Shown here: positions 48,416-59,882 of the stretch, in pieces | Numbering within the stretch: the first letter of the stretch is position 1 | How the letters are laid out: the number at the start of each line of letters is the position of its first letter | Assembly: GCA_963663165.1 (NCBI GenBank) | Contig: OY760175.1 | Location: forward strand, 5,312,001-5,376,000 | Direction: 5' to 3' | Length of the DNA stretch: 64,000 bases | From: an uncultured Desulfospira sp. | Lineage (GTDB): Bacteria; Desulfobacterota; Desulfobacteria; Desulfobacterales; Desulfobacteraceae | Program-made: the position numbers and the translations under genes | Notes under the pieces: generated by a model | Database searches by the model: none | What the model was told of the DNA's origin: nothing | The model's input: the letters and a program-made list of their open reading frames with translations, nothing else

Positions 48416-50320
<1,905 letters not shown>

Positions 50321-50615: not shown

Positions 50616-51188
50616 CTATCCGTTGATGTCGGCTTTGTACATCAGGTCCTTGTCCATTTTATAGGTCCAGGGCAGTCCCTCAAGCTTCCATCCGCCGGCC
50701 CACCGTTTGCCGTAATAGACACTGGCTTTATTTTTGTTTTTGTCGCCTTCAAAGCCGCCCATGAGGTTGAATACCTTTGCCTCGTCAAAGCCGGCCTTGA
50801 TGGCTTCGTTACAGGCGGTGCAGCTTCGGTTGCCCGAACGGCATAAAATGATCAGGGTGTCTGTTTTGGGGTCGAACCGGCTGAGTAGGTCTTTGCCGAA
50901 ATTATCGTTCATGGCTTCGGTATACCCTTTTTCCCCCGCATTGGTGGTTAAAAAACGCAACGGGACATTGTATGCATTTTCCGGGTGCCCCACAAACTGG
51001 TATTCAGCCCGTGTGCGGCAATCGACCAGAAAGGTGTGCTCCGGGTCTTTTTGAACCATTTTAAACGCGTCTTCAGGAGTCAGGTCCCCCCCGAGATGAT
51101 CTTTGTTGGCCTTGTATTCATACCCGCCCGCAAAGGCCAGGCTAGTAAAAAACAACATGCCGGTCAGCAAATAAAAAATTTTTTTCAT
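50616..51188 (-). CDS. Exported rhodanese-domain sulfurtransferase
   Basis: Signal peptide (AFA), DCRTRAEY, active-site CRSGNRS, NLMGGFEG. Confidence 0.9.
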   Translation of the reverse strand: MKKIFYLLTGMLFFTSLAFAGGYEYKANKDHLGGDLTPEDAFKMVQKDPEHTFLVDCRTRAEYQFVGHPENAYNVPLRFLTTNAGEKGYTEAMNDNFGKDLLSRFDPKTDTLIILCRSGNRSCTACNEAIKAGFDEAKVFNLMGGFEGDKNKNKASVYYGKRWAGGWKLEGLPWTYKMDKDLMYKADING

Positions 51189-51245
51189 GTCCTTTCTCCT
51201 TTTTGAATTAGATTTTTGATACGGCGGCTCAACACAGCCGCCCCG

Positions 51246-52580
51246 CTATTGTTTCAGGATTTTTTCAGGAATCCTGTCTTTGGGCACAATAGTCTTTTGA
51301 TTGGCCTTTATTTCCTCCGGGGTCAGGTCCTTTGCCTGTAAAAACAATTCCGGGTTCCCATGGCAGCTGTTACAGGTTTCGGCCTGGCGTGTTTTCAATA
51401 TAATGTTATGGGGAGAGCTTCGTTTCCAGGTGGGAACAGCCGGAAAATTCTCCAATCCCTTGGGGATGTAAAATTTAAAGGTGTCCGGCACAACAGGGGC
51501 ATGCCGGACCACCACATATTCGTAAGGGGCTTTTTGTGTGGGCTCCGGGTTCAGGCCGATTTTAAACATCACATGGGTTTTCTGGCATTTGAAATAGGGC
51601 AGCCCTTTTTTATCCGTGCCCACATGACAGGAAAAGCAGCTTTTGGAGGCCTGGGAATGGCAAACCTGGCAGGCCAGTTTTTGGACATGCCCGGTATGAT
51701 ACGGGTTTTTGCTGTCCGGTTTGAGGACATCTTCATGGCACTGAATGCATTCCGGCTTCTGGGCAAGGGCATACCGGTCGGTGGCGGCATTGGCATGCAT
51801 CTCATTGGCGTTGTGGCAGTTCATGCAGGTCATTTCTTCGTCTTCAAAATGGGTGTCGGGCGCCAAATCCTCGGTGGTCCCGGTAAATTCACCATGGACC
51901 CGTCCTCCGTGGCAGGAGGCACAGGTGGTATCCATGGGCGGCTTCTTCTTAAAGTGGTGTTTGGATAAAAAACCGCCTTTGACATAGTCCGGCCGGGAGA
52001 TGTGGCATTGTCCGCAACTGCTGTGGCAGGTCCCGCAGTGCCGGTCCATGGATTCTTTGAGGACTTTTCTGGTGTCGGGGGCACAGCATTCCCCGCCGGC
52101 CCGGCTGAAGATGGCCTGAAACATGGGCCCCAGGGTATAATGCAGGCTGTTGGTCGCCGTTTCAACGATATCGCCGTGACATTCTCCGCACACCCGATCG
52201 GCATCCCGGATGGTCGGATCGGTGACCAGTCCCTTGTGGGCGGTCTGCCAGTTATCGTCATCCGGTAAGCCGCCGTGGCATTCCTGGCAGGGGATCTGGC
52301 CATGCTCGGTTTCCAGAAAGGCCGGATCCACATAAATCTTCTGGTACAGCTCCAACGGAGCCAGCGGGCCGCCTCACCCTTCGCCGGTGGTTTCGGAGCT
52401 TTGGCCTTTCCTGGGCTTGAGTTTTTCTACCTCCCAGCACAGGCGGATCAATTTTTTCAGGTTGGTATGGCATTGGATACACTGGCTGGAAGGCTCTTGC
52501 GAAAAAGAGGCCGGGGAAATTATCGCAGCGATGAAGCCAAACGCAAAAATCAAAGGGAGAATCTTCTTTTTGAAGCGCAT
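51246..52580 (-). CDS. Multiheme (11 CxxCH) cytochrome c, predicted selenoprotein (UGA at 52374-52376)
   Basis: ORFs 52374-52580 and 51246-52355 are in one frame, separated by TGA plus GGPLAP. Signal peptide is only in the first part. Hairpin directly after the UGA. Confidence 0.85.
52341..52364 (-). promoter_or_regulatory. Candidate bacterial SECIS element
   Basis: Minus strand CTGG-CTCC-GTT-GGAG-CTGTA-CCAG. Apical loop G lies 18 nt after the UGA. Confidence 0.6.
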
Positions 52581-52730
52581 TCAAATCACCTTTTTTATAG
52601 AAACAATGTTGGGCTCTGGCTAAGTTACTTAGTACTTGACCAGTGGCCTGTCAAGGAAAAAACTTGGTCCTTGCCTTTCTGTGGCCTTCCTGGTAAATCC
52701 CAGGTTGGATTTATATTAAGGAAGGTGAAC

Positions 52731-53549
52731 ATGCAGTCAGGGCAGTCAAACGGTTCCGCGGTCTTTCATGCCCGGGAATACGGCACAGATCAAAATCGGT
52801 CACAACCCATTGAGCTGGTTGAGGAAAGCCCTCTGTTGATAACGGTTCAAGGTGGTAAATCCGTTTGTGTTATGAGAACGCCGGGCAACGAAATCAACCA
52901 TGCCGCAGGCTTTTGCCTGGCCGAAGGCATTGCCGGATCCCCTTCGGATTTTCAAACCATTGAGTATGACGGCAGAACAGATCCAAACCGCGTTACAGTT
53001 CGACTCACGCCGGGATGCCAATCAAGGGCACCTTCCCTCAGGGTCTGGGAGAACTTTCCCCCTCAGGACGGCGGCAGCCCGGACAAAGGGCAGTTGATCG
53101 GGCAATTTACCAAAGCCTTTGCTTTGCCCAGGGACGGGTTTCGTATTCATCCAGACCAGGTCTGCCAGTGCGTGGATTCCCTTTATGAGCGGCAGAGCAT
53201 TTACCCGAAGACCCGGGGAACCCATGCGGCCCTGGTGTTTGATAACCGGTTTGAAATTCTCGGGTTTGCTGAAGATGTGGGACGGCACAATGCCCTGGAC
53301 AAGGCCCTGGGAAGGGTATTGCTGGAAGGGGGCCTGGGCCGTGCCAAAATGGCCGTGATGTCTTCCAGAATCAGTTCGGCACTGGTCCTCAAAGCGGCCC
53401 GGGCCCGGCTGCCCATGCTGGCCAGTAAATCCTCACCAACGGCCATGGCCGTTGATATGGCAGCCGGGGTAAACATGACCCTGGCGTTTGTGACCGAAAA
53501 ATCAAAGCTTGTGGTTCTTTGCGGAGAACACCGGATTGTGGCGGGATAA
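52731..53549 (+). CDS. fdhD: Formate dehydrogenase accessory sulfurtransferase FdhD (divergent)
   Basis: MRTPG..AAGFCLAEG, TRGTHAA, EDVGRHNALDK, SSRIS, SSPT..AV. Confidence 0.85.
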   Translation: MQSGQSNGSAVFHAREYGTDQNRSQPIELVEESPLLITVQGGKSVCVMRTPGNEINHAAGFCLAEGIAGSPSDFQTIEYDGRTDPNRVTVRLTPGCQSRAPSLRVWENFPPQDGGSPDKGQLIGQFTKAFALPRDGFRIHPDQVCQCVDSLYERQSIYPKTRGTHAALVFDNRFEILGFAEDVGRHNALDKALGRVLLEGGLGRAKMAVMSSRISSALVLKAARARLPMLASKSSPTAMAVDMAAGVNMTLAFVTEKSKLVVLCGEHRIVAG

Positions 53550-58865: not shown

Positions 58866-59882
58866 TCATTGGTTGGTTTTGGGCAGGGGAGCGTCCGGAA
58901 CAAAGGCCCCATGGTCGGGGGTAATGGTTTTATACCCCTGCTTGAATATTTTGAAATGGATGATGGCCAGGTAGACCACCAGGGCACCGATAATGCCGGA
59001 TCTAAGATTCTGGGACAACGGAATGATGCTCTGGGTCCACAGGGTCATGAAAAAATCAATGCTCAAAAAAACGGTAAACAGCAACAGCACGTTTCTTGGC
59101 CCGATTTTAATGGCAAAGTATGCGGCCAGAAACAGACCGGCGATGGACACCCCGGGGACCGCCGAATACCACAGGGAAAAGGGGACATCATGAAACGCAA
59201 GATTGAGCAGGGTCCCCATGATGGAAGTGGCCGCCATAATGGAAATACTGGTGACAATGGAGGCGGCCGGATTGATCCGGTAGACCATGGTTAACAGAAA
59301 ATAAAATATGGTATCAATCCCAAACCCGATCCAGCCCGAGATCAGCCCCCCGATCAGTGAGGCCATAAAAAAAATGGCGCCGTTTTTAAGGGTCAGGCTG
59401 ACGGTGCGGTTGGGGTAGGTCCGTTTAAATAAAATGGAGAAAAAAATAACCTGGGTAAAGATAAACGCAGTGGAGTTGAACACCAGGGTTAAAAATTCAG
59501 GGTTGTAAATGGGGATACAAATATTGCCCAGGACCATGCCAACAGCCCCCCCGAACAACGAGACCGGGATCACATTGGTGATGAACAAATTCCGGTTAAG
59601 GCAGAACCACCGTAATGAGCCAAGCCCCATCCCATACGCCTGGATCACCAGGCTGAACTGAACCACGGTAACCGGGTCCATATGAATCCGGGTCAGGACG
59701 GGGAAATAGACAATCCCTGCGGCAGCCGGGGTAATATTGGCAACCGTAGCCGCAACAATGCCCAGAAAGGGCATAAAATAAAATTTTTCCAGGAACACGT
59801 CTTTGAAAAATGGAAACAGGGCCCCCCAGATCCCAAAAATCACGATTAATGACAGGTAAAAATATTTATGATTGAGTTTCAT
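58866..59882 (-). CDS. TauE/SafE (sulfite exporter) family membrane protein
   Basis: Multi-TM, GGLISGWIGFG motif. Confidence 0.7.
   Translation of the reverse strand: MKLNHKYFYLSLIVIFGIWGALFPFFKDVFLEKFYFMPFLGIVAATVANITPAAAGIVYFPVLTRIHMDPVTVVQFSLVIQAYGMGLGSLRWFCLNRNLFITNVIPVSLFGGAVGMVLGNICIPIYNPEFLTLVFNSTAFIFTQVIFFSILFKRTYPNRTVSLTLKNGAIFFMASLIGGLISGWIGFGIDTIFYFLLTMVYRINPAASIVTSISIMAATSIMGTLLNLAFHDVPFSLWYSAVPGVSIAGLFLAAYFAIKIGPRNVLLLFTVFLSIDFFMTLWTQSIIPLSQNLRSGIIGALVVYLAIIHFKIFKQGYKTITPDHGAFVPDAPLPKTNQ

Follow-up and report, generated by a model that had tools for sequence, protein, structure and literature searches.

An in-frame UGA, very likely read as selenocysteine, hides an eleven-heme cytochrome family encoded beside a rhodanese

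The subject of this analysis is a gene for a c-type cytochrome with eleven heme motifs, and the rhodanese gene next to it, in a 64,000-nucleotide stretch of an uncultured Desulfospira sp. genome (GenBank assembly GCA_963663165.1, contig OY760175.1, positions 5,312,001 to 5,376,000), which we call the window. The cytochrome reading frame is interrupted by a single TGA at codon 69, and we have very little doubt, judging from comparative sequence data, that this codon is read through as selenocysteine (Sec). What the exported selenoprotein would do together with the rhodanese is a separate and more difficult question. We lean towards a sulfane-sulfur reductase, with much less confidence than we have in the selenocysteine. 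The features concerned are as follows (window positions).

51246..52580, minus strand: candidate eleven-heme c-type cytochrome gene, 444 sense codons with one TGA read through
52500..52580, minus strand: predicted signal peptide, about residues 1-27, judged by eye
52467..52481, minus strand: heme motif 1, CIQCH, residues 34-38, the sole motif before the TGA
52374..52376, minus strand: in-frame TGA, codon 69, putative selenocysteine
52347..52363, minus strand: hairpin of the selenocysteine insertion sequence (SECIS) type, 7-pair stem, GUU loop
51249..52373, minus strand: ten-heme part after the TGA, resembling octaheme tetrathionate reductase (OTR) over about residues 90-444
50616..51188, minus strand: single-domain rhodanese of 190 amino acids, signal peptide predicted by eye (PF00581, E 2.8e-14)
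50823..50843, minus strand: presumed rhodanese active-site loop CRSGNRS, residues 116-122 with Cys116, from the translation

The frame from 52580 to 51246 contains no internal stop other than this one TGA, which lies in the context SSETTGEG-TGA-GGPLAPLELYQK. CxxCH motifs occur at residues 34, 98, 131, 182, 189, 220, 252, 278, 304, 315 and 403. The list of open reading frames offers only the downstream part, a product of 369 amino acids that has no export signal. The first-pass annotation of this DNA had argued that one gene was being split by an in-frame UGA, with one CxxCH before it and ten after, and this turned out to be right on both counts. It had also placed the selenocysteine in a flexible GEG-U-GG loop. 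That detail did not survive, as residues 61-80, modelled with Cys, are predicted to be ordered (pLDDT, the predicted local distance difference test, 81 and 89); residues 1-30 fall below 60 in the predicted model, and the N-termini of relatives are similar. The cytochrome gene is single copy in the genome, and its closest named relatives come from Desulfospira (90%) and Desulfobacter (75%) assemblies.

One line of evidence is the conservation of the TGA itself. We searched two samples, 401 genomes from the host phylum and 301 from Bacillota, the phylum to which G401 (a Peptococcaceae record) belongs; the gene is present in 44 of the former and 15 of the latter. One TGA was found in 46 of the 47 host-phylum matches, the exception spanning residues 165-443 only. 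Thirty-five loci that reach the site were read (29 of 30 fetched from the host-phylum search and 6 from a search for relatives), and in every one of them a single heme motif is followed by the TGA in a G-TGA-G/A context. Among the Bacillota carriers 14 of 15 have TGA at the same place, and the remaining one has a shortened loop. The stop at this site is never TAA or TAG (35/35 and 14/14 loci). Conservation of the position, which the earlier annotation had proposed to check, is thus very high. The decoding machinery is available too: the genome encodes selA, selB and selD, all three protein families above their cut-offs, and the selenocysteine tRNA (selC), so that every component the annotation had asked for is there. 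The host selD itself carries a TGA.

Another is the hairpin. Its GUU loop begins 18 nucleotides past the UGA, where the first-pass annotation had placed a hairpin with a G-initiated loop. Its stem has seven pairs, whereas synonymous-codon shuffles average 1.9 and attain that level in only 1 of 500. A comparable hairpin stands behind 274 of the 20,401 (1.3%) TGA-ending open stretches of the genome. The bacterial SECIS consensus, as given in PMC13188914, requires a loop of 3-9 nucleotides with G in one of the first two places, a stem of 4-16 base pairs, a distance of 16-37 nucleotides from the UGA and a minimum free energy of at most -7.5 kcal/mol; the GUU at +18 and the 7-pair stem agree with it, and the first 40 nucleotides fold with -10.9 kcal/mol, a second small hairpin included. 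Across 33 distinct sequences an 8-pair stem has 84.8% of its cells paired, with 36 double-sided changes, a level reached by none of 500 shuffles (38-47% in controls slid along the alignment), though this figure is inflated because the structure was derived from the same sequences and these are related by descent. Stems with 6 or more pairs occur in 26 of the 35 TGA loci, whose mean of 6.6 falls to 1.8 when synonymous codons are shuffled, and in just 1 of 74 loci with Cys. The hairpin covaries and is, on these alignments, under selection; the SECIS assignment made earlier gains support from both the consensus and the covariation.

Cysteine is the expected counterpart, and it occurs. In one clade of 80 metagenome loci, 75 cover the site, and 74 of these have TGC or TGT there (one has TAT), nearly always in a GG-C-GG context. 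Among 37 diverse relatives free of a stop, Cys occupies the anchored position in 10 and lies one residue off in 5. Tryptophan at or next to the position, in near-identical context, was observed in P0118, P0338, P0160, P0413, P0131 and P0147. P0118 and P0338 nest within TGA clades; such relatives are either the result of TGA-to-TGG changes or of gene callers that translate TGA as Trp.

It is easy to illustrate why the family has escaped attention. Ten motifs are present in 118 of the best 120 database proteins, whose median length is 373 amino acids, and so these entries are truncated at the same point; the family is hidden because databases cut the protein at the UGA. The cytochrome reaches no cut-off in NCBIfam 20.0. 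The family does not appear in the 119-family selenoprotein table of PMC13188914, in which three families carry heme motifs (ExtKL, GSU2204 and OTR), and no paper listed by our literature search, which left most subscription papers outside its reach, describes it as a selenoprotein. We consider it very likely, from sequence comparison, that this is a widespread, unnamed and mis-annotated family of eleven-heme selenoproteins. Its distribution is patchy: among 36 other genomes belonging to the same taxonomic family, just 2 have the cytochrome. A copy in a Thermodesulfovibrionales sequence (L020:8001-8200) aligns over residues 1-63 alone and stops short of the TGA, which reflects either a deletion or a misassembly.

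Is the protein a variant of something already known? An OTR-like fold and heme order were indeed found, and a conserved second His is missing from at least one heme. Nevertheless, score, heme number and active-site residues rule out an OTR identity. The window protein (P0001) does not match TIGR04315 (cut-off 375 bits), and 6 of 38 family members match weakly, the best with E 8e-8. OTR (PDB 1sp3) has 8 hemes, Lys56 as the ligand of heme II, and Cys64, while here there are 11 hemes and neither residue is conserved; nowhere in the OTR-aligned segment 148-181 is a Lys or a Cys conserved. In the Sec-containing form of OTR, listed in PMC13188914, the TGA stands at the Cys64 position, whereas the Sec described here belongs to an N-terminal extension absent from OTR. 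The host has an OTR-family cytochrome of its own (G000:C1, about 2744600-2746700, minus strand; 492 bits to TIGR04315, scored part L145:1122-2678). In this fusion a c3-like multiheme domain precedes the OTR part, an in-frame TGA occupies the position of OTR Cys64, and a G-loop hairpin follows it; as far as the sequence tells, this is a second multiheme selenoprotein in this genome, of the type listed in PMC13188914.

The other obvious comparison is MccSep, which is ExtKL (GSU2937-2936), the multiheme polysulfide reductase of Geobacter sulfurreducens (PMC13510729). The two have in common a c-type multiheme protein that is exported (here by prediction), an annotation split by the Sec UGA, Sec and Cys forms and a link to sulfur. 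MccSep differs in having 5 hemes, all before Sec325, against one before and ten after Sec69 here. Its Sec325 lies in a C-terminal Ig-like domain beside the heme-ligating Cys239 (PMC13510729), and our family, unlike MccSep, conserves no second Cys outside the motifs. Sequence similarity is confined to the heme motifs (profile E 0.04-0.06). The window protein has no match to the MccSep/ExtKL family NF040886 (cut-off 250 bits) at E 0.01; for the 38 family members NF040886 is not among the matches listed, which cover 25 of 27 families; and the best match in the genome is another gene (33.5 bits). In the structure searches MccSep is not among the matches listed, which says little about whether the fold is shared. 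The earlier suggestion of a distinct family therefore holds, as no NCBIfam cut-off is reached and the architecture is unlike that in Geobacter. If our reading is correct, the protein would work like MccSep and yet not be a member of its family. TsdA and SoxA carry far fewer hemes, and the matches listed in profile and structure searches include neither a sequence nor a fold match to them. Both pair a heme with a chalcogen residue in sulfur transfer, as cited in PMC13510729.

The next gene had been called a rhodanese with CRSGNRS, which we take to be the rhodanese active-site Cys loop, and the match to PF00581 (53.8 bits, cut-off 22.2) and the translation agree. A rhodanese is the next gene in 31 of the 32 loci (of the 35) that have downstream DNA. 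The partners fall into single-domain, tandem and lipoprotein types, which means that rhodaneses of different kinds have come to be paired with the cytochrome. All 12 neighbours sampled in the Cys clade, out of 71 called, are rhodaneses, fusions of the two occur (P0138, P0127, P0348, P0355), and 10 of 14 Bacillota TGA loci have a rhodanese-like gene next, 7 by profile and 3 by eye. In L137-L140 of Bacillota the next gene encodes a membrane protein of 403-417 amino acids, by eye like the heme-attachment protein ResB; the one in L137 has no NCBIfam match at 1e-8. In L023 and L025 the open reading frame past the rhodanese resembles, by eye, the UshA-like selenoprotein family.

In the window the pair is flanked by a divergent gene for an fdhD-like sulfurtransferase (52719-53549, plus strand) and by dnaK (48416-50320, minus strand), the latter scoring above its cut-off. 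A G+C-rich inverted repeat (51222-51241) lies in the 57-nucleotide gap between the cytochrome and rhodanese genes. Further away, a membrane protein of 338 amino acids (58866-59882, minus strand) resembles by eye a TauE/SafE-type exporter; it had no match in an NCBIfam search at 1e-8.

For the pair as a whole we propose, as the reading we would choose although with restrained confidence, a sulfane-sulfur reductase. SelB would read the hairpin and Sec would be inserted at residue 69; the single chain would be exported and loaded with 11 hemes. Cys116 of the rhodanese would take a sulfur atom from polysulfide or thiosulfate, the selenolate of Sec69 would take it over from the rhodanese, and the heme chain would give two electrons, so that sulfide is released. 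Sec69 may sit at a heme without a second His, and the reaction could reverse in some hosts. The substrate would presumably be sulfur or a selenium oxyanion. All of these catalytic steps are inferred; their chemistry follows that of MccSep (PMC13510729) and what is generally known about rhodaneses.

A physiological clue comes from Dethiobacter alkaliphilus, which, according to PMC10376724, reduces thiosulfate without Dsr or molybdopterin reductases. Its DealDRAFT_1917 is given there as a ten-heme protein that lacks a signal peptide and adjoins a rhodanese; the passages covered describe it as a SirA-like cytochrome and do not recognise selenocysteine in it. Our search match P0318 is WP_008516925.1, which clusters with MCW3489883.1 (OMD50_RS07060 in the table of that paper), has 38% identity to residues 80-432 of the window protein and is nested among TGA loci in the tree. 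By these features DealDRAFT_1917 is a member of the family, and a TGA would be expected upstream of WP_008516925.1. In the same source, thiosulfate in place of ferrihydrite goes with a 2.4-fold higher level of the homologue (q 0.032, 3 peptides) and a 2.1-fold higher level of SelB.

Several observations weigh against our interpretation, in either its selenocysteine or its functional part. The search for Cys homologues, recommended earlier, gave a divided answer: true Cys codons exist (74/75), but in 22 of the 37 stop-free relatives Cys is missing both at the site and one residue to either side (six have Trp, five Gly, four Tyr, and the rest Ala, Met, His or others), the kind of replacement that the first-pass annotation had named as a sign of a simple nonsense mutation, so that part of the family can dispense with the residue. 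Nine of the 35 TGA loci, including the 90%-identical L014, failed the hairpin test, some having longer loops. The co-occurrence with selB (41 of 43 carriers) is uninformative in the host phylum, because non-carriers have it nearly as often (75 of 80); in the second phylum the figures are 15 of 15 against 45 of 65. The structural match to OTR is distant (Foldseek E 1.5e-3, TM 0.32). L043 is the exception to the rhodanese neighbour, and 4 of the 14 Bacillota TGA loci have another protein next. As for Dethiobacter, PMC10376724 shows that the rise of the homologue rests on 3 peptides and that other cytochromes rose more, that the adjoining rhodanese showed no significant change (0.79, q 0.37), and that the homologue of strain Z-1002 was more abundant on siderite than on ferrihydrite, two iron conditions, by a factor of about 7.6.

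How do other explanations fare? That the TGA is a real stop, giving a small one-heme and a separate ten-heme protein, or a broken gene, seems to us most improbable. Gene callers do use a TTG start 7 codons past the TGA, and L020 matches the N-terminal 63 residues alone before it ends, but that TTG belongs to the loop and stem of the hairpin, the downstream part has no export signal, and the TGA, invariant in 35/35 and 14/14 loci, aligns with Cys in continuous genes. The same selenoprotein might instead be mainly oxidative or act on free sulfur oxyanions, oxidising sulfide or thiosulfate or interconverting thiosulfate and tetrathionate, with residue 69 (Sec or Cys) ligating the heme iron as Cys does in TsdA and SoxA. 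The OTR-like core, the heme without a conserved second His, a Cys-type member from a Sulfurovum sp. record and the fact that His/Cys hemes perform such chemistry (PMC13510729) all suit this idea; we still find it unlikely, given that OTR Lys56 and Cys64 lack conserved counterparts, that the carriers read are mostly anaerobes, and that the sole proteomic signal (PMC10376724) is from thiosulfate reduction.

Residue 69 could also merely tune one heme of a non-catalytic electron conduit or redox sensor, the rhodanese being only co-regulated. Its replacement in 22 of the 37 stop-free relatives, some with Tyr, Met or His, and the iron response of the Z-1002 homologue (PMC10376724) would be understandable then; on the contrary, the retention of Sec and of a peptide-constraining hairpin across many deep branches, and the recurrent pairing and fusion with different rhodanese types, make this quite unlikely in our eyes. 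A module for reduction or detoxification of selenite or tellurite, comparable to what was originally suggested for the ext cluster of Geobacter, we would call a long shot. MccSep reduces selenite too (PMC13510729), and the ext cluster includes the rhodanese-like ExtH, to whose model some of the partner rhodaneses show a weak match. However, MccSep prefers polysulfide about sevenfold (PMC13510729), no ext family cut-off is reached, and the short loci read contain no conserved transport or detoxification genes beside the pair.

The sulfane-sulfur reductase remains our preference, and if it is right, the family would add to MccSep, in 2026 the first multiheme selenoenzyme shown to drive sulfur respiration, a second multiheme-selenoprotein architecture, built on an OTR-like core. 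A bolder proposal, which we entertain only tentatively, is that Sec69 itself ligates heme iron and that the cytochrome-rhodanese pair is the missing route of thiosulfate or sulfur respiration in anaerobes that lack Dsr and molybdenum reductases, such as Dethiobacter alkaliphilus. We know of no natural selenocysteine-ligated c-type heme, and this would be one. A cultured carrier with proteomic data already exists in Dethiobacter alkaliphilus.
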